Part shown: in pieces, positions 1 to 57,785 of the stretch
How the letters are laid out: each line of letters starts with the position of its first letter
Position numbering within the stretch: the stretch's first letter is position 1
DNA from: Candidatus Omnitrophota bacterium
GTDB lineage: Bacteria > Omnitrophota > Gorgyraeia > Gygaellales > JAQTUX01
Length of the DNA stretch: 64,000 bases
Direction of reading: 5' to 3'
NCBI GenBank assembly: GCA_028707125.1
Contig: JAQTUX010000001.1
Coordinates: forward strand, 468,142 to 532,141
Translations under genes and position numbers: made by a program
Notes under the pieces: generated by a model
What the model was told of the DNA's origin: nothing
What the model saw: the letters and a program-made list of their open reading frames with translations, nothing else
Database searches by the model: none

Positions 1-301
1 ACTAAAAGACTCCCCATAAAGATTATTAGTAATCAAACGCAGAAAATGAGCACCATTAGAATTAAAATAGGCGAATTTTTTAAAACTCCCCAGAAAGTCA
101 CAGAGAAAAAGAACGAAGTAGCAATACCATTCGTATTAAATAAAGAGAAATTGTGGATGCGTTTGTCACTTGATAAAAAATAGGAAATAGTGATAGGAAA
201 TAGCGGGGACGGTTCTCTGGGATATTAGTTAGCGTAATAAGTTATGACACCTCGATTATAAATGCGAGGAGGCATTATCCGATAACAAAGGAGAGAGGGA
301 T

Positions 302-5035: not shown

Positions 5036-5138
5036 AAGCGAAAAGCGCAAAGCGAAAAACGCAAAACTAAAACGTAAAGTTCAAAACGTTTTAAACTTTA
5101 AACTTTGGTTTTACGCTTTGCGCTTTACATTTTACGCT
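5036..5138. repeat. long imperfect palindromic intergenic element (copy 1); 3' 32 bp identical to the copy at 9959-9990
   Basis: aagcgaaaagcgcaaagcg...ggttttacgctttgcgctttacattttacgct; the two halves are reverse complements of each other. Confidence 0.6.
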
Positions 5139-8975: not shown

Positions 8976-9871
8976 AGACGCTAAAAGACATCGGAGAATT
9001 CGCTCTGATAGACCGGCTCAGCCGCGGCATTAAAGCGCGCAGTCCCGTGGTAAAGGGCATTGGAGACGACTGCGCGGTGCTGGAGTATAGCGGAAGGGAT
9101 TATTTGCTTGCGGGCTCTGATATGATCGTGGAGGGGGTGCATTTTAAGCGTTCTGCCCCGCCGTTCTATATCGGCAGGAAGGCGCTCGCCGCCGCCTTAA
9201 GCGACATCGCGGCAATGGGGGGGGAACCGATAGCCGCGCTTATTTCCATAGGGCTGCCTGAAGGCCTGCCGCTTAGTTTTATGGACGGGATATACAGGGG
9301 CATCAGGGCGTTGGCGCGCGAATATAATGTCAACCTGATCGGCGGAGATACATCCGCCTCTTCAAAGATAGTCATTGATGCCGTTGTTTTAGGCAGGGTG
9401 GAGAAAAACCGCCTGGTTTTAAGGAGCGGGGCAAAGAAGGGGGATATTATTTTTGTCACGGGCGGATTGGGGGGTTCTATCAAGGGCAGGCATTTTACAT
9501 TTGAGCCAAAGATAAAAGAGGCGCGCTTTCTGGTGAAGAATTTCAGGGTCAACGCGATGATAGATATATCCGACGGCCTGCTTGGCGATCTGGGGCATAT
9601 TTTAAAACAGAGCAAGGCAGGCGCCGTGATCTTTGAGGAACTGATCCCCCTACGCAAGGCGGCCTCAGGCTTCAGGGAGGCGCTGATAATGGGAGAGGAC
9701 TACGAATTGCTTTTTACCACCCCTGTTTCCCAGGCGAGGAAGATAATAAAAATGACAGGCGGCAGATATCGGGAGATCGGGGAGGTCCTGGACAGGGAAC
9801 GCGGCTTTACGCTGGTCACCAAAGATTGCAGGCAGGTGAGATTGAAAGCAGAGGGATTTAGGCATTTTTAA
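8972..9871 (+). CDS. thiL: thiamine-monophosphate kinase
   Basis: AIR-synthase-related fold with IGEFALIDRL...GIGDDCAVL N-terminus and GGDTS motif. Confidence 0.75.
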   Translation: MKTLKDIGEFALIDRLSRGIKARSPVVKGIGDDCAVLEYSGRDYLLAGSDMIVEGVHFKRSAPPFYIGRKALAAALSDIAAMGGEPIAALISIGLPEGLPLSFMDGIYRGIRALAREYNVNLIGGDTSASSKIVIDAVVLGRVEKNRLVLRSGAKKGDIIFVTGGLGGSIKGRHFTFEPKIKEARFLVKNFRVNAMIDISDGLLGDLGHILKQSKAGAVIFEELIPLRKAASGFREALIMGEDYELLFTTPVSQARKIIKMTGGRYREIGEVLDRERGFTLVTKDCRQVRLKAEGFRHF

Positions 9872-9990
9872 AGCGTAGAGCGTAAAACGAAAAGCGCAAA
9901 ACTAAAGTGCAAAACTTAAAACTTTAAAACAAGAAAACTTTAAACTTTAAGTTTTGGTTTTACGCTTTGCGCTTTACATTTTACGCTAAC
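9872..9990. repeat. long imperfect palindromic intergenic element (copy 2)
   Basis: agcgtagagcgtaaaacgaaaagcgcaaaac...ggttttacgctttgcgctttacattttacgct; same family as 5036-5138. Confidence 0.6.
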
Positions 9991-9995
9991 ATCTT

Positions 9996-10412: not shown

Positions 10413-11049
10413 TACATCCAGCAGGATGCTGGCTATAGTTGTGGGCAATGATAAAGGCGTGCTTGCCGCCCGCAACATCAACGCGCGCGTTAAGCATTCG
10501 GTTATGATAATGCCCGCGATAGAGGCGCTGCTTAAAAAGGCGGGGCTTAAGAAGGGGCGCATCGATGCTGTGGCAGCGGGCCTTGGCCCGGGTTCTTTAA
10601 CAGGTATAAGGATCGGCGTATCCACGGCAAAAGGGCTCTGCCTTGGCCTGGACAGGCCGGCCATAGGCATATGCAGTTTGGATATCATTGCCCGTAACGC
10701 GGATAGCGGCGACAGCGATGTATGTGTGCTAGTAGACGCGAAGCGCTCATTGGTATATTCCGCCGTATATAGAGGCGTAAAGCGCGCGAGGCCGCCGAGA
10801 TTATCTTCTCTGGAGGATGCCTTGCGAGGGCTCAAACCAGGCACCCTGTTCCTGGGCGACGCCATAGGCATATACGGAGATCGGATAAAAGAAAAGGTTA
10901 GCCAGGCGCGCTTTGCCGCGCAAAGACAGTGGTATCCGCGCGCGGAAAATATCCTGGAGATCGCGTTATCGCCTAAGAACAGGAAGGCCGCGGCAGAGAA
11001 GCTGGTGCCGTTGTATCTTTATCCCAAAGAATGCCAGATCAGGAAATGA
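10393..11049 (+). CDS. tsaB: tRNA t6A37 biosynthesis protein TsaB (inactive Kae1/YeaZ paralogue)
   Basis: ILGFDTSS N-terminus and GPGSLTGIRIG motif. Likely TTG start at 10393, inside the longer ORF that begins at 10285. Confidence 0.65.
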   Translation: MNILGFDTSSRMLAIVVGNDKGVLAARNINARVKHSVMIMPAIEALLKKAGLKKGRIDAVAAGLGPGSLTGIRIGVSTAKGLCLGLDRPAIGICSLDIIARNADSGDSDVCVLVDAKRSLVYSAVYRGVKRARPPRLSSLEDALRGLKPGTLFLGDAIGIYGDRIKEKVSQARFAAQRQWYPRAENILEIALSPKNRKAAAEKLVPLYLYPKECQIRK

Positions 11050-12161
11050 AGAAAGAATTCTTCCGTCCCACAATAGCCGAGATAGACCTGGGCGCGCTGG
11101 AATATAATTTCCGGCAGATAAAGCGCAGGGTCTCGTCGCATACAAAGATACTGGTGACGGTCAAGGCAGACGCCTACGGACACGGCATACTGCGGGTTTC
11201 CAAGCGGCTGGTACGCTGCGGCGTGGATTATTTAGGCGTTGCTTCTCTTGATGAGGCCGTATGTTTGAGAAGGGCAGGGGTGAAATGCCCAATACTTGTC
11301 CTGGGCGTGATCTTCCCCGAACAGGCCGGGACGGTCATCGATCACGATCTGACGCAGACCGTCTGCACCCTTGATGTCTGCCGCGCCCTGGACCGGCTGG
11401 CGGCGCGCAGGCACAAACGGGTCTCTGTCCACGTAAAGATAGACACAGGTATGGGCCGGCTGGGTGTCAGCTGGGGCGACGCCGAAGAATTCATCAGCGC
11501 CCTGTATAAGCAGATGAAGCACGTTTCCATAGAGGGCATCTTTACCCATTTTCCCCGCGCCGATGATAATAAAGCCCTTACCGGACGGCAGATAAGCATG
11601 TTCAGCGCCCTGGTGCGCCGGCTTGAGAAGAAGGGCATATTCATCCTGTTCAAGCACTGCGCCAACAGTATGGCTGTGCTGGATTATCCCGGAAGCCATT
11701 TTAATCTTATAAGGCCGGGACTGATCATTTACGGCCTGTATCCCAAAGACGGCTTAGACATACGGCTGAAACCGGCGATGGGACTGAAGTCAAAGATAGT
11801 TTTTATGAAATCAGTGAAAAAAGGCACGCCGTTAAGCTACGGCCATACCTATATAACCTCTAAAGATACCTCAGTAGCAGTTGTCCCCATTGGTTACGGC
11901 GACGGCTATTCCCGCGGCCTATCCAATAAGGCCCAGGTTTTGATCAAGGGCAGGCGTTTTCCTGTTGTGGGCACTATCTGCATGGACCAGATCCTGGTTG
12001 ATACAGGCAGGTTAAAGGCAAAGGTGGGAGATGAAGTTGTCTTGATCGGCCGTCAGGGAAAACAGGCAATTACCGCTGAAGAGATCGCCCGCCTCACGCG
12101 CACCATCCCTTATGAAGTCGTCTGCCAGGTAGGCAGGCGCGTCCCGCGGATATACAGGTAA
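11031..12161 (+). CDS. alr: alanine racemase
   Basis: PLP-lysine motif VTVKADAYGHGI and C-terminal beta-domain. Its 3' 70 nt are duplicated at 21792-21872. Confidence 0.9.
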   Translation: MPDQEMKKEFFRPTIAEIDLGALEYNFRQIKRRVSSHTKILVTVKADAYGHGILRVSKRLVRCGVDYLGVASLDEAVCLRRAGVKCPILVLGVIFPEQAGTVIDHDLTQTVCTLDVCRALDRLAARRHKRVSVHVKIDTGMGRLGVSWGDAEEFISALYKQMKHVSIEGIFTHFPRADDNKALTGRQISMFSALVRRLEKKGIFILFKHCANSMAVLDYPGSHFNLIRPGLIIYGLYPKDGLDIRLKPAMGLKSKIVFMKSVKKGTPLSYGHTYITSKDTSVAVVPIGYGDGYSRGLSNKAQVLIKGRRFPVVGTICMDQILVDTGRLKAKVGDEVVLIGRQGKQAITAEEIARLTRTIPYEVVCQVGRRVPRIYR

Positions 12162-12168
12162 TATTTAC
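12088..12168 (+). repeat. left copy of the 81-bp direct repeat (alr 3' end plus 9 nt); right copy at 21792-21872
   Basis: 61 nt are identical (cccgcctcacgcg...gtcccgcg), followed by 20 nt with 4 mismatches. Confidence 0.8.
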
Positions 12169-12244
12169 TTGACAAGATGTATTCTATGTAGTATTGTGAT
12201 TTTGTAATAACTATAAGTAAATCAAATAGTTACATTCCAGATAA

Positions 12245-15200
12245 GTGTCGTTCACGAACAAATTACCTATCCTGATTTTAAAGAAAATAACCCAAACAGG
12301 GATACTCTGCGTATCCCTGTTTTTGTTTTATCTGCCATTTGCATTTGCAGACATATCTGCATCAGCCAATGTCGGTCTGACGTTAAACAGCGTTAGAGGC
12401 CGCACTATCATGGCAGGCGCCCGGCCGATTTCATTCACGTTGCGAGTTCAATACAACGGCACAAATCAACTGACTTTTGGCGCAGAAGGATTGCGGGGAA
12501 ATGCCACTTTAGACGCCCAGACAGGCAGGTTCTACTGGATGCCAGAGGAAACTGATGTAGGAACACACCCTATCACTTTCCGGGTAACAGATGGTGTAGA
12601 AACCGACCAAAAGACAGTCACATACACTATTCTGCATAACTCTACTCCTTACACGGGCTCAGTCAGTCCCGATGATGAGATAGTCCGCTCCAATGAACAG
12701 TTGGAGTTTATTGCTACTTATTTTGACAACGCCGGCTGGCAGGACATACAGGATGTGTATATGTCTATCGGAGGGGCTTACTTCAGGTATAACCTACCTG
12801 AAAATAAGCTATATGCCTCAAGTAACTTTTCCCAATGGAATGGCGGTTATACCCCAGGCACAGCACAGATCATACAGGTAGACTTGGACGAATGGCAGGC
12901 AAGACTGGATTGTTCCAAAGTTAATATAAATGGTTCAGGTAAGGCATTAGAAATTAAATGGCCCATTCTATTTATAAATAAGACGAGGCACAATATAAGA
13001 AAGAACGTCTCTTTGTATGCTAAAGATAGAAACAACCTTGATTCCGGCTGGAGGGAGTCAGGGGAGATTAAAATTAGAGGATTAAAAGGCCGCATCCTTA
13101 CCTTTGGTCAGACCATAATAGATACTATTTCTAAAGAAAACTTTACTGTGACCTACACCTTTAGCGCCTCTAAAGACGACTACATCTACATGGCATTTGC
13201 CAAGACAGAAGGAAGTGACTTCCAGCCCTACCTTCAGTTATTTGATCCAAGCGGCAGCCATATTGCTTACGTATACGATACCACAGCCAACGCGCTCGGC
13301 ACGACACTAACCGCAACAGGCAGATATGTGTTAACCGTCTCAGACCACAACGGCGAAAATACCGGCAGCTACGCTTTGACCCTTCAGCGCTTTAATAACC
13401 CGGGCCAGGCATCTGCCCTAACTGCAGGCCAGACCCAATCCGCCTCCATATCAGCCCCCTCTGAAATAGACGCCTACAGCTTTACAGCGGCCTCAGCCGA
13501 CACCTTGATCATAAACCTGGTCAAGACATCAGGAGAGTTTAGGCCCTACATAGGAGTATATGACGATAAGGGCAAGCTGCTTAAAAAAGTTGATACCTCT
13601 TCTTCAGTCACCTTAAGTATGCCGCTTGCTCGGGCAGGGGTTTACTACATCTATGTGAGGGACTCCTATAACTATGAGACAGGAAGCTACAGTATAGCCC
13701 TGCAGGGCGCCAGCAATCCTGAACTTATCCAGCTCTCCTTCGGCCCTACAGTAACAGGCGCTATCTCTGCTGCAAGCCCGACAGTCACCTACACCTTTAG
13801 CGCCTCTAAAGACGACTACATCTACATGGCATTTGCCAAGACAGAAGGAAGTGACTTCCAGCCCTACCTTCAGTTATTTGATCCAAGCGGCAGCCATATT
13901 GCTTACGTATACGATACCACAGCCAACGCGCTCGGCACGACACTAACCGCAACAGGCAGATATGTGTTAACCGTCTCAGACCACAACGGCGAAAATACCG
14001 GCAGCTACGCTTTGACCCTTCAGCGCTTTAATAACCCGGGCCAGGCATCTGCCCTAACTGCAGGCCAGACCCAATCCGCCTCCATATCAGCCCCCTCTGA
14101 AATAGACGCCTACAGCTTTACAGCGGCCTCAGCCGACACCTTGATCATAAACCTGGTCAAGACATCAGGCCAGTTTACGCCTCGTCTGACAGTATATGAC
14201 AGTAAGGGCAAGCGGCTTGAGAGCGCTAATATCTTTTCAGATACCTTAAGCGCCTCACTTCCTCAGGCAGGCGTCTACCACATCTATGTAGTGGACTCCT
14301 ATAACTATGAGACAGGAAGTTATGACATAAGCCTGCAGAGCGCCAGTAATCCCGATGGCGCTGTAGACATTGCTTTCGGTGAGACAGTAACGGGTGAGAT
14401 TTCTTCTCCTATGGATACGGATGTATATGGCTTTACCGTAAATGAAGGTGATAATTTATACGCGGATATACGTTTTCCCAAAGTCAGCGGCAATAGTTAT
14501 TTCTCTCCATATGTGCGGCTGTATGATAGGTCAGGCAATATGATTGCCGATTCTACCTCGGGTATGCTTCTTCACTCTTTGCCTTCCGCAGGAACTTATT
14601 ATATTTTTGTCTCCGACAATTATATGGATGCCACAGGCAGCTATCAACTTACTCTGTCCAATGAGACCCCTGATATAGATAATCTTTCAGTTACGCCCAA
14701 TCCTTTTTCTCCGGACGAAAGCGGCACCTGGGTAGATCTGGATACAGGGGAAATATTCAACGACCCGGGGCCTAACCGCGTTCTGGACGATGTAGCCAAT
14801 ATTTCTTTTACCGCCTCTATGCAGGGATTTTTTGATATCAAGATTATTGATAGTAACAGCCAGCTGGTCAGGCAGCTTGTTTATGACGTATTAACTCCGG
14901 ATCACCGGACTAATTTGATACGAGTGCAGTGGAATGGCCGCAGCCAGAATAGTGATTTAGTTCCAAACGGCGCGTATACGCTGATAGTAAACTCCGGAAA
15001 TGTTGACAGGTGTCTGACCGCGACAATTAATGTAAACAAAATTGTTTTTATCACTATTGCCAGAATAACGCCAAATCCTTTTTCTCCTGACCGTGACGGT
15101 GTAGACGAAACAACCACCCTTTCTTACAGTTTATCTGAGAATTCCTATGTCAGCGTAGAGATTTATAACCAGCAAAATACTCTATTAAGAAAGTTAGCAG

Positions 15201-16279
15201 ACAATCAACTCCTTAGCTACGGCAGCCATAGCCATATCTGGGACGGTAAAGATAGTCAGGGTGCATACCTTCCTGAAGGCAGATACACTGTGAAGATAAG
15301 CGCTAAGGCAGAGGATGGAAAAGACGCAGCTCCTGTTTACCTGAATGTTGCCATACTGTTTATTTCTGATATCCGTATTTCTACGGACGAGATTAATCCT
15401 TACGCAGGAGAGGCCGTAACCATATCTTATAGAATGTCACATGAAGGCGTTTTAAATATTAAAATTTATAATAATAAAAATGCATTGGTAAGGAATCTTA
15501 TTCTAAACCAGCCCCGCCAGTCAGGCACATACTCAGAGGTTTGGGATGGCAAAGATAATGCCGGCAGGATTGTGCTTGACGGCGCCTACTATTTTATCAT
15601 AGAGGACAGCAAGGGTGGCGCTGTCTATGATCCTCGCGGCACAGGCGGGAAAGATATCTCCGGCAGCATCCGCCTGTCGGCATCTGATTTTAATCTGCTT
15701 CTTAATCAATTCTGTGTTATAGATTATACTCTGCCCCAGGCAGCAAAGATTAATCTTAAGGTCCGCTATGATAGATATTCAGGCCCGGCTGTCAGGGTGT
15801 TGAAATATCAAGAGCCGGTTTCTTCAGGCGCGCACCAGACGCTCTGGGACGGCAGGGATGAGACAGGAGATTTTGTTGACCGTACTGATTTTACCTTTGC
15901 CATCTGGGGATATACATTGGATGAGAATTCCATTTTGGTTGTGGGAGATAGACCTGTAATTAGCAATCCGGCTATTATCCCGGTCCGTTTTAGCCCTTAT
16001 GATAATCCTTATAGCACAGGTGTTTCAGAAGGCACAATCTCCTTTAATCTATCCAGAGATGCCAATGTTACGATAAATATTTATGATTCTGAAGGTAATC
16101 TGGCGCGCAATCTGCTGAATAATCAGCCCTGCGCGCAGGGCAGCAATTCTTTTATCTGGAACGGCAGAAATAACGAAGGTAATTTTGCGTCTGAAGGGTT
16201 TTATCGGGTAGCAATTCAGGCGGAAAAAGACGGCAATTATTCGGAAGGTTATACCTTGCATACGGAGATTTTCTATTGA
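12245..16279 (+). CDS. giant secreted surface protein with tandem PPC (pre-peptidase C-terminal) domains followed by ~5 FlgD-Ig-like domains
   Basis: Signal peptide. Repeated ...DAYSFTA...AGVYYIYV.DSYNYETGSY motifs (PPC-like). Repeated NPFSPD..G......L.Y.L.....V.V.IY....L.R.L...Q..G.H...WDG motifs (FlgD-Ig-like). GTG start. Confidence 0.6.
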   Translation: MSFTNKLPILILKKITQTGILCVSLFLFYLPFAFADISASANVGLTLNSVRGRTIMAGARPISFTLRVQYNGTNQLTFGAEGLRGNATLDAQTGRFYWMPEETDVGTHPITFRVTDGVETDQKTVTYTILHNSTPYTGSVSPDDEIVRSNEQLEFIATYFDNAGWQDIQDVYMSIGGAYFRYNLPENKLYASSNFSQWNGGYTPGTAQIIQVDLDEWQARLDCSKVNINGSGKALEIKWPILFINKTRHNIRKNVSLYAKDRNNLDSGWRESGEIKIRGLKGRILTFGQTIIDTISKENFTVTYTFSASKDDYIYMAFAKTEGSDFQPYLQLFDPSGSHIAYVYDTTANALGTTLTATGRYVLTVSDHNGENTGSYALTLQRFNNPGQASALTAGQTQSASISAPSEIDAYSFTAASADTLIINLVKTSGEFRPYIGVYDDKGKLLKKVDTSSSVTLSMPLARAGVYYIYVRDSYNYETGSYSIALQGASNPELIQLSFGPTVTGAISAASPTVTYTFSASKDDYIYMAFAKTEGSDFQPYLQLFDPSGSHIAYVYDTTANALGTTLTATGRYVLTVSDHNGENTGSYALTLQRFNNPGQASALTAGQTQSASISAPSEIDAYSFTAASADTLIINLVKTSGQFTPRLTVYDSKGKRLESANIFSDTLSASLPQAGVYHIYVVDSYNYETGSYDISLQSASNPDGAVDIAFGETVTGEISSPMDTDVYGFTVNEGDNLYADIRFPKVSGNSYFSPYVRLYDRSGNMIADSTSGMLLHSLPSAGTYYIFVSDNYMDATGSYQLTLSNETPDIDNLSVTPNPFSPDESGTWVDLDTGEIFNDPGPNRVLDDVANISFTASMQGFFDIKIIDSNSQLVRQLVYDVLTPDHRTNLIRVQWNGRSQNSDLVPNGAYTLIVNSGNVDRCLTATINVNKIVFITIARITPNPFSPDRDGVDETTTLSYSLSENSYVSVEIYNQQNTLLRKLADNQLLSYGSHSHIWDGKDSQGAYLPEGRYTVKISAKAEDGKDAAPVYLNVAILFISDIRISTDEINPYAGEAVTISYRMSHEGVLNIKIYNNKNALVRNLILNQPRQSGTYSEVWDGKDNAGRIVLDGAYYFIIEDSKGGAVYDPRGTGGKDISGSIRLSASDFNLLLNQFCVIDYTLPQAAKINLKVRYDRYSGPAVRVLKYQEPVSSGAHQTLWDGRDETGDFVDRTDFTFAIWGYTLDENSILVVGDRPVISNPAIIPVRFSPYDNPYSTGVSEGTISFNLSRDANVTINIYDSEGNLARNLLNNQPCAQGSNSFIWNGRNNEGNFASEGFYRVAIQAEKDGNYSEGYTLHTEIFY
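13148..14169 (+). repeat. intragenic tandem duplication, 636-bp period; 386 bp are 100% identical between units (13148-13533 vs 13784-14169)
   Basis: Exact DNA identity, giving an identical 128-aa peptide TVTYTFSASKDDYIYMAF...LVKTSG. The adjacent halves of each unit are only ~60-70% identical. Confidence 0.9.
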
Positions 16280-16285
16280 TATGGG

Positions 16286-16717
16286 GTGGACGGGATGAAA
16301 AAAACGAGTATGTATATTCTGTTTTTCATAGCCGCATTCTCTTTTAATCTTTTAGCAAAAGAGGCGTATCAAAACCAGTTGATTTTGGAATTAAACTTTC
16401 CAAAAGAAAGCACTGCTAAAATGGAGGCGCCGCGACCAAAGGCAGAGGCCCTGTCCATTTCCGGCGAAATCCTTGTTAACATCAGCCCTGTTCCTGAGAA
16501 AATAGAACAGGACAGGTATTTGGTGGAGTATTTCTTAGATGAGCAGTTAATATATCGAACCACCGGTTTTGACAGGCGCACTTTTGCCTGTATTCTGGAT
16601 ACTGCCCAATATGAAAACGGCACGCATAAGCTGATCATTAATTTCTGGGATAAATCCGGCCCTTCAGCCATCGGCATAAGAGAGCTTATCATTAACAACG
16701 AGGAAACAAATGAATAA
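16286..16717 (+). CDS. hypothetical secreted protein
   Basis: Signal peptide MYILFFIAAFSFNLLA and no recognisable motif. Lies immediately upstream of rhs with a 4-nt overlap. Confidence 0.3.
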   Translation: MDGMKKTSMYILFFIAAFSFNLLAKEAYQNQLILELNFPKESTAKMEAPRPKAEALSISGEILVNISPVPEKIEQDRYLVEYFLDEQLIYRTTGFDRRTFACILDTAQYENGTHKLIINFWDKSGPSAIGIRELIINNEETNE

Positions 16718-19700
16718 CCGCCTCCTGAAGATCCTCTCGGTATTCACGCTTTTCTTCTTTGTTTCCAATATCTTCATACCCCCTGTAGCCCTTGCCGAGC
16801 TTCCCTGCTGGAACGATGCCTCGCTTGCTTCCGGAGAGGGCGGGGTAGATGATGCAGCCACCGCAGGCGGCAAGCCCGCTGGCATAAACCAGAAGAACAG
16901 GACAGAGGCAGCAGATCCTGTTGATGTCTCAAACGGCAATTTCTTCTACCAGAACCAGGATTTATCCATCCCTTCACGAGGACTCTCCTTAGAGATAAAG
17001 CGCTTCTACAACAGTTTAGACACCTACGAAGGCCCCTTTGGCATAGGCACAAGCCACAGCTATAATATATTCTTGTTGGAGATTTCAGAAGCAAGCCAGA
17101 CATACGTTCTAAGGCGTAACGCCAACGGCTCAAAGGACAGATTCCTGCGGAATGCCGACGGTTCCCATACACCTTCAGCTGGCTGCTATGACACCTTAAC
17201 CAAAGACACAACCGGCTACCTGATACAGGACAAGTATGGCTTCATCTATCGCTTTGGTTTAGATGGTCGCCTTAACTCAATCACTGACCGAAACAACAAC
17301 ACAATCTCCTTAGAGTATGACTCACAATCATCTGTATTAAGCAGAGTCAGCGACAGCTTAAGCCGCTTTATTGAATTCGCTTATAACCCCCAGCGCAAGA
17401 TAAGCCAGGTAAGCGACTCTACCGGCCGCCTGATCTCATATGAATACGATTCAGACGGCAATCTAATCTATGTAACCACTCCTGCCACAGGGGATTATCC
17501 TTCAGGACTGACTACCACATACGCCTACGACGATAAGCACAGGTTAACCTCCATAACAAACGCCAGGGATAGGCGATATATATCCCTGGAGTATGATGAA
17601 AATAGCCGCGTAAAGGATCTTACCTATGGAGCAGGCGTATATCGCTTTAGCTATAAGAGCGCTCTTACAACCCTTATTGACCCCAGGGGCTTTACGACAG
17701 AATACGAGCTTAATACAGATGGCACAGTCCAGAGCCAGAAGCAATACGCCGGCAGCTCATCTTATCAAACCAGATACGAATACAACCAGAACCGCGAGCG
17801 CACCAGGATAACCTATCCTGAGGGCAACTGGGTTAAATACACCTATGATAATAAGGGCAGCATTCTGGAAATCAGGCGCAAGAAAGCCAACGCCTCTGAC
17901 AGTGATGACCCTGCAAATGACATAGTAGCTGCCTTTAGCTATGAGCCGCAGTTTAACTTCGTCAAGACCGCAACAGACCCTAAGGGCAACGTTACTACCT
18001 ATGATTATGACTCAAAAGGAAATCTCATCAAAATAATCTATCCGGCTGTTAACGGCGTAAAACCCGAAGTTAAATTCGCCTATAGTGCTTACGGCCCGCC
18101 AACCAGCGTAACAGACCCTAACGGTAATGTAACTACCTATGATTACGACCCTGATACTGGATACTTAGTCAAAACAACCGCTGCTCAAGGCGTTCTTAAC
18201 CTTATCACCCGGTTTACCTACGACACAACCGGTAACATCAAAACCGTAACCGACCCCAAAGGCAGCACCACGACATTTGAATACGACAGCCACAACAACC
18301 TGATTAAGACCACATCCGCTTCACCATTTAACTATGAGACCCTCTATAAATACGATGAGAACGATAACCTGATTGAGCTCCACAGACAGACCGGCGACCC
18401 TGATAATCCCTGGCAGACAACCTCCTACACCTATGATATCCTTGACCGGCTGGACTCTGTCAAAGACGCCATAGGCAATACCTCTAACTTTATCTATGAC
18501 TTAAACGGCAACCGCCGCTCGCTTGCAGATGCGGAAGGTAATACTACTACTTATGAATACGATGAACGCAATCTACTCTGGAGGGTAACCGACGCAGAGA
18601 ATAATGTTACAGAATACTCCTACGATACAAACGGCAACCTCAAGCAAATCACTGACGCAAAAGGCAATGCTACCGTCTACACCTACGACAGCTTTGATCG
18701 GCTCATCTCTACCACCTACGCTGACGACTCAATAGAGGAATACACCTATGACGCCAATTCCAACCTCATCACCAAAAAAGACCCCAAAGGCCAGGTCATC
18801 ACCTACGCCTATGACTCCATTAACCAGCTGGACTTAAAGACCTATCCTGATAAATCAAGCGTTGACTATGTTTATGACATCGGCTCCCGGCTTGTTGATG
18901 TCATTGACAAAATCGGCACCATACACTATGACTATGATGCGGCCAGCCGAATTACCAGCGTAACCTATCCCGGCAATAAATCCGTCTCTTACGAATACGA
19001 CGCCAATTCCAACCGCAGCAAGCTAACCTACCCCGATAATACCTATCTTACCTATATATATGATGAACTCAACCGCCTGACCAATGTAGTTGCCCCATTG
19101 ATGGGGCAAGGCAGTGCCGTCGCCTCCTACACCTATGACGCCCTCTCCAGACGCACCCGGCTTGACTACCTCAACAATACCTACTCGCTCTATGACTATG
19201 ACCCAGCCAGCCGCCTGACAACGCTTACCAATGTCTCTAACTCTATACCTAACCCCTACTCCTACACCTATGATAACGCGGGCAACAGGACGTCATTGCG
19301 AGGAGCCGAAGGCGACGAAGCAACCTACACCTATGACAAGACCTACCAGCTCACAGCCGTCAACTACCCTGACGGCTTTGCCTTCTTTGACACTGCCTAC
19401 GACTATGATGAGATAGGCAACCGCACGACAAACTACACCTCAAACTCCCTCAACCAATATACCAAGGCAGGTACAACCAACCTCGCCTACGACAGCAACG
19501 GCAACCTCACCAATGACGGCAGCTTCACCTACGCCTATGACTACGAGAACCGGCTGGTGAGCGCCTCGTCATTGCGAGGGAGCGAAGCGACCGAAGCAAT
19601 CTACGCCTACGACCCCTTCGGCAGGCGCACCTCAAAGTCATTGCGAGGAGCCGAAGGCGACGAAGCAATCTCCTACATCTACGATGGCGACCAGATCATC

Positions 19701-20468
19701 GCGGAATACGACGCAAGCAACAATCTCATCGCTAAATATATCTATGGTACGGGTATAGATGAACCCATTCTTATGCAAAGGGGGGAGAATGCTTATTACT
19801 ACCACTTTGACGGCCTGGGAAGCGTAGTAAACCTCACCGACTCTTCCGGCTCAAAGGTTGAAAGCTACACCTACGATGCCTACGGTAATCCCATTATCCA
19901 CGATCCATCATCCAATATCCTTCTTCAATCCTCCGTTGGTAATCGCTACATGTTCACAGGAAGAGAATATGATGATGAGACGGGGCTGTATTACTACAGG
20001 GCGAGGCATTATTCGCCGATGATTGGGAGATTCTTGCAGAGGGACTCTTGGCCAGGAATACCAGAAGATCCCGGTTCACTCGTTAATAAATATACCTACT
20101 GCTCCAACAATCCCATAAATTGGATAGATCCTTATGGGTGGGATAAACAGAAGAAGGATCAACCATGGTGGATTGTAGTTGGAGGTATTACAGTAGCTAC
20201 ACCTATTCAAGGGGATGAAGCAATCTTTTGGACAGGAGTAGGTATAGTTGCAATAGGTAGTTATGCTGTTCATCAGTTTAGTAAATATCACGCAAAAGGT
20301 CCGTTATGGAATGCTCCAGGTATGCCAGGGTGGAATTTAAGGCAATATGAAGAACGACAACCAGGAGCTTTCAAGCCACCGCCAAATTTTAAGAATTGGA
20401 AAGATAGAATTATATGGGCAGCTGGTTTACTCGCTAAATTATTTAATAATTTCAGAGGAGGCAGATGA
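16710..20468 (+). CDS. rhs: Sec-secreted Rhs/YD-repeat polymorphic toxin with variable C-terminal domain
   Basis: Signal peptide, dozens of YD repeats (xYxYDxxGNL) and the Rhs core ending ...YYYRARHYSPMIGRFLQRD...NNPINWIDPYGW. A ~120-aa divergent hydrophobic C-terminal domain follows, in visibly AT-rich DNA. Confidence 0.8.
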   Translation: MNNRLLKILSVFTLFFFVSNIFIPPVALAELPCWNDASLASGEGGVDDAATAGGKPAGINQKNRTEAADPVDVSNGNFFYQNQDLSIPSRGLSLEIKRFYNSLDTYEGPFGIGTSHSYNIFLLEISEASQTYVLRRNANGSKDRFLRNADGSHTPSAGCYDTLTKDTTGYLIQDKYGFIYRFGLDGRLNSITDRNNNTISLEYDSQSSVLSRVSDSLSRFIEFAYNPQRKISQVSDSTGRLISYEYDSDGNLIYVTTPATGDYPSGLTTTYAYDDKHRLTSITNARDRRYISLEYDENSRVKDLTYGAGVYRFSYKSALTTLIDPRGFTTEYELNTDGTVQSQKQYAGSSSYQTRYEYNQNRERTRITYPEGNWVKYTYDNKGSILEIRRKKANASDSDDPANDIVAAFSYEPQFNFVKTATDPKGNVTTYDYDSKGNLIKIIYPAVNGVKPEVKFAYSAYGPPTSVTDPNGNVTTYDYDPDTGYLVKTTAAQGVLNLITRFTYDTTGNIKTVTDPKGSTTTFEYDSHNNLIKTTSASPFNYETLYKYDENDNLIELHRQTGDPDNPWQTTSYTYDILDRLDSVKDAIGNTSNFIYDLNGNRRSLADAEGNTTTYEYDERNLLWRVTDAENNVTEYSYDTNGNLKQITDAKGNATVYTYDSFDRLISTTYADDSIEEYTYDANSNLITKKDPKGQVITYAYDSINQLDLKTYPDKSSVDYVYDIGSRLVDVIDKIGTIHYDYDAASRITSVTYPGNKSVSYEYDANSNRSKLTYPDNTYLTYIYDELNRLTNVVAPLMGQGSAVASYTYDALSRRTRLDYLNNTYSLYDYDPASRLTTLTNVSNSIPNPYSYTYDNAGNRTSLRGAEGDEATYTYDKTYQLTAVNYPDGFAFFDTAYDYDEIGNRTTNYTSNSLNQYTKAGTTNLAYDSNGNLTNDGSFTYAYDYENRLVSASSLRGSEATEAIYAYDPFGRRTSKSLRGAEGDEAISYIYDGDQIIAEYDASNNLIAKYIYGTGIDEPILMQRGENAYYYHFDGLGSVVNLTDSSGSKVESYTYDAYGNPIIHDPSSNILLQSSVGNRYMFTGREYDDETGLYYYRARHYSPMIGRFLQRDSWPGIPEDPGSLVNKYTYCSNNPINWIDPYGWDKQKKDQPWWIVVGGITVATPIQGDEAIFWTGVGIVAIGSYAVHQFSKYHAKGPLWNAPGMPGWNLRQYEERQPGAFKPPPNFKNWKDRIIWAAGLLAKLFNNFRGGR

Positions 20469-20962
20469 TAAAAAATAAATTACTTTTTCATATGATACCA
20501 ATAGAAGATAGAACTAATAAAGGTTATAAGAATTTAGTTGAAAATATTTTAAAACATGCTTTCTATTTTATTCCAGCAGAAGATTTGGAGGGAATAGAAA
20601 AAATAATACTTTTAGATGAATGCCAAGATCGAGAGTTTAAATGGGCGGGTGGATTTTATTATGCCTATGAAGAAAAGGATGCTATTATAGAACTGTATCC
20701 TCCAAAAATAATAGATGCAAAACCATTTTTTGTTCCAACATCAAAATTCTTTAATAGTTACTCAATCACTAAGATGTTTTTGCATGAATTGGGACACCAT
20801 AAATTCGGAAATGTGCAGGAACGAGAATTCAAAGCTCAAGAATACATGGTGTTATATATTAAGAAAATATATGGCAATTGGATTTATTTTTTTGATTTTT
20901 TAGCTAGACTAGATAATTTTTTACGTAAGTTTCTCAAAACCTTCAACAAAAAAGCAATGTAG
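20465..20962 (+). CDS. small protein downstream of the Rhs C-terminus: candidate immunity protein or HExxH zincin-like partner
   Basis: ATGA overlap with the rhs stop and GGAGG RBS. Contains HELGHH (HExxH) at residues ~107-112. AT-rich. Confidence 0.35.
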   Translation: MIKNKLLFHMIPIEDRTNKGYKNLVENILKHAFYFIPAEDLEGIEKIILLDECQDREFKWAGGFYYAYEEKDAIIELYPPKIIDAKPFFVPTSKFFNSYSITKMFLHELGHHKFGNVQEREFKAQEYMVLYIKKIYGNWIYFFDFLARLDNFLRKFLKTFNKKAM

Positions 20963-21022
20963 TATAACGAAAAAACGCCAACGAAGCTTTACATAACTAG
21001 CAATACATAATGGGCATAACGG

Positions 21023-21036
21023 GGACGGTTCTCTTT
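21023..21036 (+). repeat. REP-like motif GGGGACGGTTCTCT (copy upstream of RAYT)
   Basis: Same 13-14-mer occurs at 206-220 (+) and as the reverse complement at 21775-21790. Confidence 0.6.
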
Positions 21037-21157
21037 ATCATAACCTTAACTATCATAATCACTTACAACACCTACTTTATAAATTTTAAGATTTCTTGCA
21101 AGTAAACGCCTCATTTTTGCGTCTATTATAGTAGAAGGGCAGAAAGGGGGCGTTTTT

Positions 21158-21763
21158 ATGCCACGAGACAGAAGGCACATACCAGAGGCAGGTTTCCTGC
21201 ACGTTATATCCAGAGGCAACAACAGAAGGAAGATATTTCGGTATGAGAGAGATTTAGAGGCGTATTATTCAATTCTTCTTCAAAGCAAAGCAGAAGACAG
21301 AATCAACATCTCTCATTATTGCCTGATGAGCAATCATATACACTTGATACTGGAGGTAAACGAAGCAAGCAACCTTTCCAGGTTCATGAAGCGGGTAAAC
21401 CTGAGGTACGTCTACTATTACAGAAGAAAGTATGCCTACTGCGGCCATCTCTGGCAGGACAGGTTCAAGGCAAAGACTATAGACAATGAGGAATACCTTA
21501 TTCAATGCGGCAAATACATAGAGCTGAATCCTGTTAGAGCGGGCATAGTCAAGAGACCTGAAGAATATCGGTTTTCCAGTTACCTCCACTATGCTTATGG
21601 AGCTGAGGATGTATTGATACAAGATAATCCTTTCTACTCTGAATTGGGAGAGAGCCAAGAGCGAAGGCAAACAATTTACAGAGATATGATTATAGAAGAG
21701 ATGATAGAGAAGGGCCTAAGACAGGAAAAAATAATTGAGCACTCAGAACTTATTGCGGTATAA
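21158..21763 (+). CDS. REP-associated tyrosine transposase (RAYT) / IS200-like Y1 HUH transposase
   Basis: HUH motif SNHIHLILEV and catalytic Tyr region YYYRRKYAYCGHLWQDRF, with N-terminal HVISRGNNRRKIF. Flanked by inverted GGGGACGGTTCTC motifs. Confidence 0.75.
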   Translation: MPRDRRHIPEAGFLHVISRGNNRRKIFRYERDLEAYYSILLQSKAEDRINISHYCLMSNHIHLILEVNEASNLSRFMKRVNLRYVYYYRRKYAYCGHLWQDRFKAKTIDNEEYLIQCGKYIELNPVRAGIVKRPEEYRFSSYLHYAYGAEDVLIQDNPFYSELGESQERRQTIYRDMIIEEMIEKGLRQEKIIEHSELIAV

Positions 21764-21774
21764 TAGATAACAGC

Positions 21775-21790
21775 AAGGAGAACCGTCCCC
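21775..21790 (-). repeat. REP-like motif (inverted copy downstream of RAYT)
   Basis: aggagaaccgtcccccc is the reverse complement of GGGGACGGTTCTCCT. Confidence 0.6.
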
Positions 21791-21791
21791 C

Positions 21792-21872
21792 CCCGCCTCA
21801 CGCGCACCATCCCTTATGAAGTCGTCTGCCAGGTAGGCAGGCGCGTCCCGCGCGTATACAAATAATATTTAC
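21792..21872 (+). repeat. right copy of the alr 3'-end direct repeat (degenerate C-terminal coding fragment ...RLTRTIPYEVVCQVGRRVPRVYK*)
   Basis: 61/61 nt identical to 12088-12148, then 16/20 identical. Its stop abuts the convergent lptF/G stop. Confidence 0.8.
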
Positions 21873-22972
21873 AGAGTATCCTGGAATTTGAACAGGGCGA
21901 TATAAAGGAAGATGATGTTTGTCGTCCACGCGGCAAGAAGGGGGGGCAGCAGGCCGGATTTTCCCAGGGCGATGCTTACCGCGTCCATCACGTAATACAG
22001 GAAGGCGATGATCATGCATATGCCGATAGAGGACAGCGCCGCGCCGCGTTTCTTGATCTCCAGGGAAAACGGTATGCCCAGCAGGATTATTACTAGGCTG
22101 GTAAAGGGAAAGGAGGTCTTGTAAAATAAATCCACCTGAAGGTTCCTTATGACCGTCTTTGCCCCGCTTTTTGAGATCTTTCGTATGTAATTATTCAAAC
22201 GGGCCATATTCATATGCTCCGGCCGCTGCCTTTGTTCTATAAAATCCTTGGGCGTCTCGTCAAGATACATCGCGATCTCCGCGTGGAATTCGGGGTTGCC
22301 CTTTACGATGCCGCGGCTGTCAAAATAGAATATGGTGCATTTGTAGAGGTTCCAGTATTTATCCTTCCATACGCCTTTATCCGCCAGGATCTTTGAAGTG
22401 ATATTCTGGTTTTTATCCTGCTCAAGTATGGTCACGTTTTCAATGGTATTTGACTGCGTATCAAAGGACTTGATAAAAAACAGCCGGTTGCGCAGGCCGT
22501 AGATCGAAAGGTTATTTATCTCCGGCCGCGACCGCTTTTTATTCCTGTCCGCGCTTGAATACTCCATCTGCCTTTTTATCTGCTCGGTCGTTTCCCTGGC
22601 ATTGGGCACGAGGCGTTCATTGGCCATGAACACAAAGGCGCTTATGACGCATCCGAAGAACACCGTTGAGCGGCAGATCTGCCAGAGGCTCAGGCCTGAG
22701 GCGCGCATAGCCACTATCTCGTGGCTGCGGTTGAGGCGGCCGAAGGTGTAGAGCACGGCAAGCAGGCAGGCGATGGGCGAGGTCTGGATAAATATCACCG
22801 GCAGGTATGAGGCGTAGTATTGCAGCAGGAGGGGCGGGTTCATGCCCTGTTTCAGTATCTCGTCCAGATGGCTGAGTATATCAATGGCTATATACAGGAG
22901 GAAGAACAGCGACTGTGTCCCTATAAACAGTGAGGCCGTTGATTTGAGGATGTAACGGTCTAATATACGCAT
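21869..22972 (-). CDS. LPS export ABC permease, LptF/LptG (YjgP/YjgQ) family
   Basis: Six-TM permease architecture with a periplasmic beta-jellyroll insert, paired with an adjacent paralogue. Confidence 0.65.
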   Translation of the reverse strand: MRILDRYILKSTASLFIGTQSLFFLLYIAIDILSHLDEILKQGMNPPLLLQYYASYLPVIFIQTSPIACLLAVLYTFGRLNRSHEIVAMRASGLSLWQICRSTVFFGCVISAFVFMANERLVPNARETTEQIKRQMEYSSADRNKKRSRPEINNLSIYGLRNRLFFIKSFDTQSNTIENVTILEQDKNQNITSKILADKGVWKDKYWNLYKCTIFYFDSRGIVKGNPEFHAEIAMYLDETPKDFIEQRQRPEHMNMARLNNYIRKISKSGAKTVIRNLQVDLFYKTSFPFTSLVIILLGIPFSLEIKKRGAALSSIGICMIIAFLYYVMDAVSIALGKSGLLPPLLAAWTTNIIFLYIALFKFQDTL

Positions 22973-24048
22973 GACTTATAGGTAAGCACGCCGCCTATGG
23001 CGCCCAGCAGCACATTAGGCGCCCACATAGCGATATTGGGGTTGAAATTGCTCTGCAGGCAGAGCGCCTCCGCTCCGATCACGAGAAGGTAGTAGGCGCC
23101 CACGATGAGGAAGGCGATGCCGAAATTCACGGACTTTTCCCGCCGCCTTGTGATTATCGCCAGCGGAGCGCCGATAAGCACAAAGACAAGGCAGGAGAAC
23201 GCCATTGATAATTTTTTATTTATCTCCGTGATCAGGGGAAGGGGGTTGATGCCTTTTGTTTTCAACCTGCCGATCTCCTGCATCAGTTCTTTTATCGTCA
23301 TATGCTTGGGCTTCTTCTCTACTTCCCCCGTGGCAGAGGCAAGGTTAAGCGTCATAAAATAGGTCTTGAAATTCAATTTGTAGAAGCTGTTGGGTTCGTT
23401 GGGGTCGGGTTCGTCGGATGTGCCGTCCAGCAGTTTAAGTTTGACTATATTCTTGTCGGGGATGGCTATGAATTCCCCTTCTTTGGCGACGATCGTCCTG
23501 GTGGGCTTGCCTTCCTGCGGCTCATAGATCCTTATGTTGGAGAACCTGTTGCCTTCTATCTGGTAGATGAACAGGACGTATTTTTCAAAAGAGTCAATGA
23601 ATACCCCCGGCTCAAGCGCGGCAGTGGGGTTGCTTACCCCCACCCGCATCACCGCCTTTTTTGAGGCAAGCTGGGCGCGGGGGATGACCTTATCGTTGAA
23701 TACGACGAGCACGAGGCTCATGATCAGGCCCAGCACAAGGATGGGCACTATCAGGCGGAATATGTTTATTCCGCTTGAGCGTATGGCTATTATTTCGTTG
23801 TCGGAAGACAGCCGGCCGAAGCACAGGAGCACGGCCGCGAGCGTGGCAATAGGCAGGGTATAGCTGAAGAGGTATGGGGTCAGGAGCAAGAACAGCTTGC
23901 TTACGCTGACGATGTCAACCCCTTTGTTGATCACCAGGTCGGCCATCTTTACCATGTTCCCCAGAAGCATCACGAACGTCAACACCAGAATGGACGCTAT
24001 CAGGGGGGCGGCAAATTCTTTCAATATGTAATTTCTCAGGATCTTCAT
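22960..24048 (-). CDS. LPS export ABC permease, LptF/LptG (YjgP/YjgQ) family
   Basis: Same family as the neighbour, with overlapping start and stop. Confidence 0.65.
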   Translation of the reverse strand: MKILRNYILKEFAAPLIASILVLTFVMLLGNMVKMADLVINKGVDIVSVSKLFLLLTPYLFSYTLPIATLAAVLLCFGRLSSDNEIIAIRSSGINIFRLIVPILVLGLIMSLVLVVFNDKVIPRAQLASKKAVMRVGVSNPTAALEPGVFIDSFEKYVLFIYQIEGNRFSNIRIYEPQEGKPTRTIVAKEGEFIAIPDKNIVKLKLLDGTSDEPDPNEPNSFYKLNFKTYFMTLNLASATGEVEKKPKHMTIKELMQEIGRLKTKGINPLPLITEINKKLSMAFSCLVFVLIGAPLAIITRRREKSVNFGIAFLIVGAYYLLVIGAEALCLQSNFNPNIAMWAPNVLLGAIGGVLTYKSCVY

Positions 24049-24049
24049 T

Positions 24050-24751
24050 TTAGTTCGCGAGGGTATACACGTAGATCTTTGCGCAGCCGGCCTTCTTCAA
24101 TACCTCGGCCGCTTCCTGAACTGTGGCTTGAGTGGTCATGATATCGTCAAACAGCATTATGGATTTTCCTTTGACAGCTTCAGGATCGTCTAAGGCAAAG
24201 CAGCCCTTGACGTTGCCGGCCTTATGTTCCGGCTCAAGCTCTGATTGAGGCCGGGTATATTTTACGCGCCGCAATCCCTTAAATATCTCTAATCCGAATT
24301 CCTCCGCCAGTTCTTCGCAGAGGAGCATCGCCTGATCGAATTCCCTTTCTCTGAGTTTTCTGCCGTGCAGCGGTATGGGCACGATAAGGTCCACGTTCGT
24401 AAGCGGCAAATAATTTTCCCGGATATACTCGATCAACAACTTACCCAGCAGCTCCTTCAGTTTCAGCCGGCTGGAGTATTTAAACAGATGTATCAGTTTT
24501 CTGGCGCACCCTTTATATTTCAGGCAGGCATACGCCTTTTCAAAGGCGGCCCCTTTGCCGCCGGGCGCGTAGCACACGTTGTTTTTCTCTATTTTCTCCC
24601 AACATTCAAAGCAGAGCAGCCCATCTATGTTGACCTCCTTGAGCCTCCTGCCGCATACGAGGCAGACCTTGGGGTAGAGGATGTTTATCAGGCCCTCCAC
24701 GGCGCCGCATAGCATAGCCAATATAATAACAACTAATATGGTTGAATTCAA
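24050..24751 (-). CDS. comFC: ComF family phosphoribosyltransferase-domain protein
   Basis: N-terminal double zinc ribbon (CLVCGRRL...CFECW) and PRTase motif IMLFDDIMTTQATV. Confidence 0.6.
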   Translation of the reverse strand: MNSTILVVIILAMLCGAVEGLINILYPKVCLVCGRRLKEVNIDGLLCFECWEKIEKNNVCYAPGGKGAAFEKAYACLKYKGCARKLIHLFKYSSRLKLKELLGKLLIEYIRENYLPLTNVDLIVPIPLHGRKLREREFDQAMLLCEELAEEFGLEIFKGLRRVKYTRPQSELEPEHKAGNVKGCFALDDPEAVKGKSIMLFDDIMTTQATVQEAAEVLKKAGCAKIYVYTLAN

Positions 24752-24845
24752 GGAGAAAAAGTTGTAGAATATATTTGCAATACTCGGGTCCGGGATTGGC
24801 TGTTATTTCCGGAGGTTAAATAGTTGATGGCCGGGCCGCCATCTG

Positions 24846-36240: not shown

Positions 36241-36259
36241 AGTGCGGAAGGAGAGATTT
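36241..36259. repeat. 19-bp direct repeat agtgcggaaggagagattt (attL-like; copy of the tRNA-Leu 3' end)
   Basis: Identical to 40906-40924, which covers the last 17 nt of tRNA-Leu plus 2 nt. Confidence 0.8.
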
Positions 36260-36330
36260 ACCCGACCATCGTGCCACATAGGTCGGGATCCCGCCGAGAA
36301 TTAGACAAGTAGCGGGAGAACTCTCACAGA

Positions 36331-36700: not shown

Positions 36701-36702
36701 AC

Positions 36703-57783: not shown

Positions 57784-57785
57784 CC

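Follow-up and report, generated by a model that had tools for sequence, protein, structure and literature searches.

Introduction

Elements mobilized by tyrosine recombinases often integrate into the 3′ ends of housekeeping genes, one of the two flanking direct repeats then holding the gene end (PMC5704250). When the integrase is lost and both attachment sites, attL and attR, are kept, the result is a cis-mobilizable element, or CIME (PMC5704250). In the case of prophage e14 of Escherichia coli K-12, the repeat comprises the icd 3′ end, now part of the prophage, and the icdC fragment, and the genes intE and xisE lie between the two copies (PMC13626634). We measured this direct repeat as 216 nt, with copies that are 87% identical and 15,204 nt apart. 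A second kind of accessory DNA, the Rhs elements of E. coli, combines a GC-distinct core with an AT-rich tip, a downstream open reading frame (ORF) and an adjacent H-rpt unit resembling an insertion sequence (IS). The present analysis concerns an accessory island located between alr, which encodes alanine racemase, and the convergent gene lptG in a Candidatus Omnitrophota bacterium. It lies in a stretch of 64,000 nucleotides (GenBank assembly GCA_028707125.1, contig JAQTUX010000001.1, positions 468,142 to 532,141 of the forward strand), hereafter the window, whose numbering is used throughout. The island had originally been predicted from this DNA alone on the basis of a duplicated alr 3′ end. 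Comparison with related loci strongly supports the interpretation that the block 12169–21791 is an insertion into the alr/lptG junction of one strain.

Anatomy of the repeat and empty sites

Both a repeat search and direct reading of the sequence give a direct repeat of 81 nt whose copies (Table 1) are separated by 9,704 nt, start to start. As predicted, the first 61 nt are identical and the remaining 20 nt, GATATACAGG in the left copy and CGTATACAAA in the right copy, differ at four positions (12149, 12150, 12157 and 12158). A search of the window with the 61-mer, allowing up to three mismatches, gave these two copies and no others, as compared with 0.00 occurrences in 100 shuffles. The repeat is composed of the last 74 nt of alr, including the TAA stop, a 3-nt spacer (TAT) and TTAC, in which the lptG stop and one further base are read on the opposite strand. 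Its right copy thus runs into the lptG stop at 21869–21871. The size of the unique insert between the copies, given earlier as about 9.6 kb, is corrected to 9,623 nt (12169–21791). Core genes make up the flanks, namely thiL, tsaE, tsaB and alr upstream and lptG, lptF and a comF-like gene downstream. With its left-copy end, alr matched positions 1–127 of the 127 in Ala_racemase_C, and an NCBI record (P0121) is named alanine racemase, Candidatus Omnitrophica. A search against Rfam found no structured RNA within the island or the repeat. Inspection of the junction for a dif/Xer site, such as is used by integrative mobile elements exploiting Xer, consisted of a by-eye comparison with the E. coli dif consensus only and revealed no convincing similarity.

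Evidence for an insertion comes from unoccupied junctions. In contig L002, an assembly from the Logan collection (sample SRR22315506) retrieved by an exact look-up of the LptG protein, alr converges onto lptG across a 3-nt spacer with nothing between the two genes; its LptG is 100% identical to that of the window and it belongs to the same species. L002 and the window are 99.5% identical on the lptG side, up to exactly position 21792; on the alr side the figure is 96.7%, and L002 has the terminus of the right copy. Another contig from that sample, L059, is 100% identical to window positions 19870–21356. Because L002 and L059 come from one sample, filled and empty alleles coexist in one community, and the island is a presence/absence polymorphism. 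A contig from sample SRR22315508 (L001) is 100% identical to positions 21823–25979 and breaks off within the repeat. The junction is also free of the island in a relative whose alr product shares 83% amino acid identity (L062; 3-nt spacer and a nearly identical 3′ end), in one with 57% alr identity (L145; 6-nt spacer) and in two others with spacers of 54 nt (L060) and 78 nt (L061). An unoccupied, single-copy junction is therefore found in five relatives, in agreement with the earlier proposal that alr was ancestrally directly convergent with lptG; relatives carrying the same genes at this position without a repeat, which would have spoken against an insertion, were not encountered, all five junctions being empty. 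A scan of a genome collection with alr gave identities of at most 46%, to metagenome-assembled genomes (MAGs) of Bacteroidota and Ignavibacteria, which are uninformative for the junction, and exact-protein look-ups of the window alr, the transposase of the island, its 143-aa ORF and a second copy of the transposase (P0243) returned no records.

The composition of the island is foreign by each of the measures applied, in agreement with an insertion. Its GC content is 44.9% versus 51.7% for the core, its tetranucleotide distance is 25–35 versus 12–17 (×10⁻³) and GC content at third codon positions (GC3) is 0.23–0.55, as compared with 0.60–0.72 in the flanking genes.

Identity of the two repeat copies

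In the original prediction the right copy was described as a degenerate alr C-terminus. On the contrary, it is a perfect native terminus: all 81 nt match the empty-site contig L002, and only two mismatches to L062 are found over 21792–21900. L001, L002 and L062 all carry the native tail, CCGCGCGTATACAAATAA. It is the left copy that is altered, since its tail, CCGCGGATATACAGGTAA, occurs in none of the 145 loci fetched and its four changes are absent from every empty site. As the right copy matches the empty sites and the changes lie on the left copy, the latter has an altered end brought by the incoming DNA; the functional alr thus ends in imported sequence, its original end having been left as an orphan.

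The repeat does regenerate the alr terminus, as proposed earlier, with an end that is conservatively different (R-I-Y-R versus R-V-Y-K). From 12149 onwards, the last 13 coding nucleotides of the functional gene depart from the native allele, giving …PRIYR* as opposed to …PRVYK*. Among the four tail differences, CGC to CGG is synonymous, and the resulting V to I and K to R replacements are conservative; PRIY and PRVY are both natural among Omnitrophota alr proteins. With four changes placed at random, the chance of all landing in the final 20 of the 81 positions would be about 0.003. In its left variant the look-alike of the alr end can be written …CGGATATACAGGTAA / …CGGATATACAGGTAATATTTAC. The imported piece ends in TATTTAC, the same sequence as at the native junction, so that it was copied from the alr/lptG junction of a close relative.

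Relative to L002, alr is a mosaic, with 15 mismatches in 11450–11594, none in 11595–12019 and 10 in 12020–12168, six of the latter falling in 12020–12086. These six variants are a mix of L002 and L062 alleles, three of them being common to the island-free L062. The idea that they mark a donor tract is weakened by this sharing, and they are probably ordinary population variation. The fine-scale mosaicism between co-occurring strains indicates frequent homologous recombination in the population.

Table 1. Position and supporting evidence of the features at the alr/lptG junction (window coordinates)
Feature	Position	Strand	Evidence and remarks
alr (alanine racemase), intact	11031..12161	+	Pfam Ala_racemase_N 6e-69, Ala_racemase_C 1.6e-48, both full length
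Left repeat copy (attL-like)	12088..12168	+	61-nt block as in right copy; 20-nt tail with 4 changes
Promoter-like site TTGACA-17-TATTGT	12169..12197	+	10/12 consensus match only; starts at first island-specific base
Secreted or surface protein, 1344 aa	12245..16279	+	FlgD_ig 2e-38 (three domains), CHU_C 3e-12, PPC 2e-11, He_PIG
ORF of 143 aa, hydrophobic N-terminus	16286..16717	+	No family match (Pfam, NCBIfam)
Rhs/YD-repeat protein, 1252 aa	16710..20468	+	RHS_repeat 9e-89 (14 stretches), DUF6531 4e-16, Rhs_assc_core 5e-22
Partner ORF of 165 aa	20465..20962	+	Overlaps Rhs stop by 4 nt; HELGH motif; no family match
RAYT cassette, 776-nt unit	21015..21790	+	Y1 transposase ORF 21158-21763 (201 aa) between inverted arms
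Inverted arms of RAYT cassette, 16 nt	21021-21036; 21775-21790		GGGGACGGTTCTCTTT and AAGGAGAACCGTCCCC, respectively; arm motif GGGGACGGTTCTC; inverted-repeat search
Right repeat copy (attR-like)	21792..21872	+	Orphaned native alr terminus …RLTRTIPYEVVCQVGRRVPRVYK*; last 4 nt = lptG stop plus one base
lptG, intact, convergent with alr	21869..22972	-	Pfam LptF_LptG 1.5e-81; P0001 named LptG by NCBI

Cargo of the island

The gene content is as first described, that is, a PPC/FlgD-Ig surface protein, an Rhs protein with its partner ORF and a transposase related to those associated with repetitive extragenic palindromic (REP) sequences, or RAYT (REP-associated tyrosine transposase). Within the gene for the 1344-aa protein, about 636 nt are tandemly duplicated (13101–14355), and between the two units a 300-nt block is 93% and a 120-nt block 78% identical; the corresponding protein segments, at approximately aa 286–500 and aa 500–710, are near-identical. 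A strong bidirectional terminator-like hairpin with a 12-bp stem and a T-run is located at 12294–12322, 133 nt past the alr stop and in the predicted signal-peptide coding part of this ORF. Either it ends alr transcripts inside the island or the start of the 1344-aa ORF has been set incorrectly.

The Rhs protein has a signal-like N-terminus, and its core ends in DPYGW (aa 1140, nt 20127–20141), followed by a low-GC tip of 108 aa. The GC content falls stepwise from 48.5% in the Rhs core to 39.8% in the tip and 27.9% in the partner ORF, which is the classical Rhs pattern. The attributes that define an Rhs polymorphic-toxin locus, i.e. a YD shell, a core with a DPxGx motif, a variable tip and a small downstream ORF, are all found here. 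No Pfam or NCBIfam family was matched by the tip or by the 165-aa ORF. The 165-aa ORF, an identical copy of which is present in contig L059, sits where an immunity gene is expected and may play such a role. Judged from its predicted proteins, the cargo would be a competition and adhesion module consisting of a surface protein, a small secreted protein and a putative Rhs toxin with a low-GC, presumably exchangeable tip and its partner ORF.

A palindromic element of about 32 nt (GTCATTGCGAGG…GAAGCAATC) occurs in frame three times in the Rhs gene (19292–19323, 19568–19599 and 19637–19668), where it codes for SLRGAEGDEA-like loops between the YD repeats. The same element is found in frame in an unrelated YD-repeat ORF (2635–2674 of L130); the repeat search also located part of it (…GAAGCAATC…) in L111, within the Rhs ORF (7636–7672). 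Intergenic inverted doublets of the element occur in a Christensenellaceae MAG (2913–3013 and 3058–3160 of L041). Its position within genes is reminiscent of the Rickettsia palindromic elements.

Pfam and NCBIfam searches with all five ORFs of the island detected no integrase, excisionase, relaxase, transfer or replication gene. Scans of viral contigs with the att core and with the Rhs protein gave no matches, and because of this there is no apparent sign of a phage origin.

The RAYT cassette

The transposase matches Y1_Tnp in Pfam (3.9e-18; 66 bits versus a cut-off of 23) and falls just below the cut-off of NCBIfam REP_Tyr_transpos (76.7 bits versus 80). Its stop codon lies 29 nt from the right repeat copy, the outer arm ends 1 nt from that copy and a third copy of the arm is present at window positions 205–218. 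In unrelated contexts, nucleotide homology stops at the arms, extending over 21015–21790 in L064 and over 21021–21770 in L063; because of these boundaries the cassette is a discrete, independent unit of 776 nt. A second copy of the transposase, 88% identical (P0243), is on record.

A metagenome scan for relatives of the transposase yielded 80 loci with 37–80% identity. As a rule, the transposase gene in them lies between inverted copies of (A)AAGGGGACG[G/T]TTCT… or, alternatively, of a different sequence of 15–34 nt, and the arm 13-mer is kept across relatives that are only 40–80% identical. Additional arm copies are dispersed and also occur as doublets about 100 nt apart. When folded together with their flanks, the arms did no better than shuffled sequence (z +0.4 and +0.7), and the search for an arm hairpin was thus negative. 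At the outer edge of many GGGGACGG… arms we also observed stutter duplications, in which 8–20 nt of flank are repeated together with the first Gs of the arm, as in GGAAATAG…GGAAATAGCGGGG at window positions 186–208. Such sites are found at 180–218 of the window, at 1240–1285 of L064 and in L065, L069–L071, L073, L074, L082, L087 and L093. This suggests repeated cleavage and rejoining at the arm edge.

Long direct repeats at the cassette were sought in the same 80 loci, about 65 of which have usable flanks, and were found only in L075/L076 and L121. The former are duplicate contigs whose third copy reveals a dispersed element, and the repeat of L121 is 30 nt long. The notion that cassettes of this type make long target duplications was accordingly rejected, inverted arms being the rule in the 80 related loci, and since the relatives show no such duplications, the cassette probably did not make the 81-nt repeat. 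In 25 of 25 other loci the arm is bordered on its outer side by A/T-rich sequence, mostly AAA, as compared with GGCGGG of the alr fragment in the window. For this reason the right junction appears atypical and probably secondary, being explained most simply by a deletion that ended at the arm. No arm-like motif was detected at the left end of the island at up to two mismatches. The earlier statement that the repeat delimits the island precisely may consequently need qualification at the right edge, which coincides with the end of the cassette and looks secondary.

Matches to the window Rhs protein are found in 13 of the 80 loci obtained with the RAYT and in none of the 56 obtained with alr, the two sets being drawn from different taxa and hence an imperfect control. 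The loci concerned are L067, L071, L103/L106, L108, L111, L122, L130, L133, L134, L136 and L142/L143. In seven loci the end of the Rhs core lies at most 3 kb upstream of the RAYT gene on the same strand, and the usual position of the latter is directly downstream of the last pair of toxin tip and small ORF. L111 repeats the order of the window (PPC-like genes, Rhs, RAYT), and in L108 the order is Rhs, small ORF, orphan Rhs fragment, small ORF, RAYT and a second Y1 gene. Literature searches for a link between RAYTs and Rhs found no paper. RAYT-like Y1 genes seem to lie beside Rhs loci far more often than expected; this is to be taken as a lead, not a result, and the adjacency may hold more general interest than the island itself.

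Other features of the window

Two further low-GC segments were noted. The first (36249–40874; about 4.6 kb, 34% GC) contains two ORFs, one of 410 aa with no match and one of 810 aa that weakly matches TPR. Inverted repeats of 156 nt and 123 nt (96–98%) and a 50-nt direct repeat (92%) with a hairpin of 7-bp stem form its boundaries, and it adjoins tRNA-Leu (40907–40990); no integrase was found in it. The second (57611–64000) follows directly after tRNA-His (57533–57610) and runs past the end of the window. It includes a nucleotidyltransferase/HEPN pair (57786–58815) and a gene (60772–62295) for a 507-aa fusion of a LexA DNA-binding domain, an S24 peptidase and an N6_N4 DNA methylase.

An A/T-rich palindromic intergenic element of 115–130 nt, which reads …AAAGCGAAAAGCGCAAAGCG … CGCTTTGCGCTTTACATTTTACGCT, is present in two copies (5030–5145 and 9865–9995) with 85% column identity, one of them between thiL and tsaE. 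Rfam recognised a tmRNA at 42542–42958 (106 bits) that ARAGORN did not report, and an nhaA-I riboswitch at 24786–24844, directly upstream of the gene for an MscS-like channel at 24846.

Origin of the island

The original prediction had left open whether targeted integration or recombination produced the repeat. That the block was inserted with a regenerated alr end has stood the comparison; between the two routes the choice can be given as a probability only, the island having no integrase. Our favoured reading, to which we assign a probability of roughly 55%, is a Campbell-type integration by a site-specific integrase via a look-alike of the alr end, followed by decay to an integrase-less, CIME-like islet. 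The crossover would have taken place between the chromosomal alr/lptG junction (attB) and a look-alike of at least 81 nt on incoming, presumably circular DNA. The distal part of the look-alike would have become the new alr terminus, followed by the same TATTTAC, and the original terminus would survive as an orphan fragment from which lptG still takes its stop codon. Because the two stop codons are only 3 nt apart, an insertion at this junction damages one of two essential genes unless a replacement end is supplied. The target is indeed intact, alr being full length with its end replaced and the lptG stop being kept by the right copy. The position and nature of the four repeat differences, all on the left copy, confined to the last 20 nt and conservative, also count in favour of site-specific integration. 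The likeliest catalyst would be an integrase of the type that targets the 3′ ends of housekeeping genes, since lost. The right edge would have been remodelled later, as the REP/RAYT cassette now ends exactly at the orphan alr fragment. A deletion is probably behind this edge and could have removed the recombination module as well as trimmed a longer alr fragment.

Several observations weigh against this reading. Among the five ORFs of the island, Pfam and NCBIfam revealed no tyrosine or serine recombinase, only Y1_Tnp, and the non-coding DNA, 76 nt (12169–12244) and 52 nt (20963–21014), is too short to accommodate an integrase remnant. The remaining low-GC regions of the window (36–41 kb and 58–64 kb) likewise gave no integrase. 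No second element targeting alr was found, and the att core was unmatched in viral contigs. The repeat, at 81 nt, exceeds the 8–60 bp usual for att repeats (PMC5704250), and a perfect block of 61 nt, such as it contains, suffices for RecA-mediated recombination. Lastly, the circular intermediate and the integrase are postulated, as is the deletion at the right edge. Of the attributes of an autonomous integrative element, flanking repeats, an intact target and an empty attB are present and the integrase is missing; because of the latter, the island is not classed as such an element.

The main rival to the integrase reading, possible though in our view doubtful, is that no site-specific recombinase was ever involved and that the island was acquired when DNA taken up from a related strain recombined in a RecA-dependent manner. 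This might have happened by a single crossover of a circularised fragment carrying the alr 3′ end. Alternatively, homology-facilitated illegitimate recombination may have used alr as the anchor on the left and microhomology in a C-run (21787–21794) on the right, thereby orphaning the recipient alr end. The 61-nt block would be sufficient for homologous pairing, the C-run offers at least 3 nt of microhomology at the right junction and no integrase is present. The look-alike ends in the same spacer and lptG stop (TATTTAC), which points to the junction of a close relative as its source rather than to an ancient attP. The alr mosaic, as a trace of frequent homologous exchange, fits a donor tract starting near 12020; however, three of the six variants at 12020–12086 are shared with the island-free L062 and need not be donor-derived. 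Moreover, a donor allele that is about 7% divergent would rarely give 61 consecutive identical bases, and sharp repeat ends that cover exactly the gene end and both stops are typical of targeted elements. Such a route would, in addition, merely shift the original insertion event back to the donor.

Site-specific integration by a lost integrase has also to be weighed against the transposase that the island does encode. It is conceivable, if very unlikely, that the island is a self-contained Rhs–RAYT mobile unit whose Y1 (HUH) RAYT-like transposase moved it as single-stranded DNA and inserted it 3′ of TTAC, homing on the 81-nt gene-end look-alike as part of the right end of the unit. The RAYT is the sole recombinase-like gene, it adjoins the right repeat copy and its family is recurrently linked to Rhs loci (13/80 versus 0/56, with the same order in L111), which on this view it would move or rearrange in Omnitrophota and neighbouring lineages. 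Both repeat copies end in …ATTTAC, TTAC being the target of IS608. If true, this would be an integrase-free, HUH-driven insertion of cargo between two abutting essential genes. However, transposition of the IS200/IS605 type is directed to a fixed target of 4–5 nt and makes no target duplication, contrary to the 81-nt duplication that brackets the island. The roughly 65 relatives with usable flanks are bounded by inverted arms, long direct repeats being restricted to L075/L076 and L121, and no arm-like motif marks the left end of the island. In other loci TTAC is not found beside the arms, whose outer flanks are of the AAA type; the cassette occurs alone in unrelated contexts (L063 and L064), and the arm lacks a hairpin of the kind that Y1 enzymes recognise.

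An assembly artefact, in which the chromosome is empty and a 9.7-kb segment that is episomal or located elsewhere was threaded in through the 61-nt block, is highly improbable. The empty site and island sequence were both recovered from sample SRR22315506 (L002 and L059), and L001 stops inside the repeat at 21823, as a branch in an assembly graph of k = 31, presumably the value used for Logan, would produce. Against this, ordinary reads are longer than 61 nt, and the source contig spans 1.26 Mb. Because its alr allele is 3.3% divergent, the empty-site contig represents a different strain, not the same chromosome. The segment has no replication gene, and the left variant completes a full-length Ala_racemase_C; even if the artefact were real, the segment would be an element with an attP made of an alr end. 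Finally, the proposal that the genes stood between alr and lptG ancestrally and were lost secondarily through recombination of the repeats, for which it may be said that recombination in the 61-nt block regenerates the exact L002 sequence and that L002 alone cannot separate a never-occupied from an excised site, is effectively refuted by five scarless empty junctions (alr from 57% to near-identity; spacers of 3, 3, 6, 54 and 78 nt), by the foreign GC3 and tetranucleotide composition of the island and by a left-copy tail that is not the allele of this lineage.

Comparison with known systems

The island documents a strain-level gain of genes, verified by comparison, in the uncultured phylum Omnitrophota, from which hardly any mobile elements have been described. 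Literature searches found no described integrative and conjugative elements (ICEs) or integrative and mobilizable elements (IMEs) for this phylum, and nothing on alr as an attachment site. It illustrates how cargo can enter between essential convergent genes 3 nt apart if a spare gene end comes along with it. In practical terms its value is modest: the attB/attL/attR triplet could be used for read-level measurement of excision, and the island may serve as a marker for strain tracking.

The REP/RAYT systems, including the REP doublets forming hairpins (REPINs), are comparable to the cassette in that a Y1_Tnp gene lies between inverted copies of a short motif that is also dispersed and found in doublets. 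The cassette differs in its sub-cut-off NCBIfam score, in an arm that is not a palindrome or hairpin and in the existence of a second, 88% identical copy. Overall, it behaves more like an IS than like the single-copy domesticated RAYTs (PMC5581495).

As regards cargo, the Rhs elements of E. coli share with the island strain variability, a core ending in DPxGx, a tip of lower GC content, a small ORF and a transposase-like unit downstream. In contrast to them, the island has a Y1/RAYT cassette in place of the ISAs1-family H-rpt and is bracketed by a duplicated gene end, and its Rhs protein has a Sec-type N-terminus and no evident link to a type VI secretion system (T6SS) or PAAR proteins.

With respect to integration, the closest parallel is offered by e14 and phage 21 in icd. 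There, too, the target is the 3′ end of a housekeeping gene, the element carries its own gene end with conservative substitutions and the displaced native end survives on the far side as a C-terminal fragment (icdC). Unlike the island, which has neither integrase nor excisionase, e14 encodes intE and xisE and excises upon SOS induction. The repeat of the island is also shorter (81 nt) and differs only in its last 20 nt, its target lies between convergent genes 3 nt apart and it preserves both stop codons. CIMEs and decayed IMEs or ICEs, such as ICESt1/CIME at fda, resemble the island in having att-like repeats, one with the target gene's end, and cargo only. Their defining combination of retained attL and attR with no integration or transfer genes (PMC5704250) is found here as well; unlike in CIMEs, no related integrase-bearing element is known for the alr site, and the repeat is longer than 8–60 bp. 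By analogy, the island may be viewed as operating like e14/icd and CIME-type remnants and as an Rhs accessory element in its cargo. It would therefore belong to a known type of island, what is new being the target at the alr/lptG junction, the phylum and a duplication that preserves two abutting stop codons.

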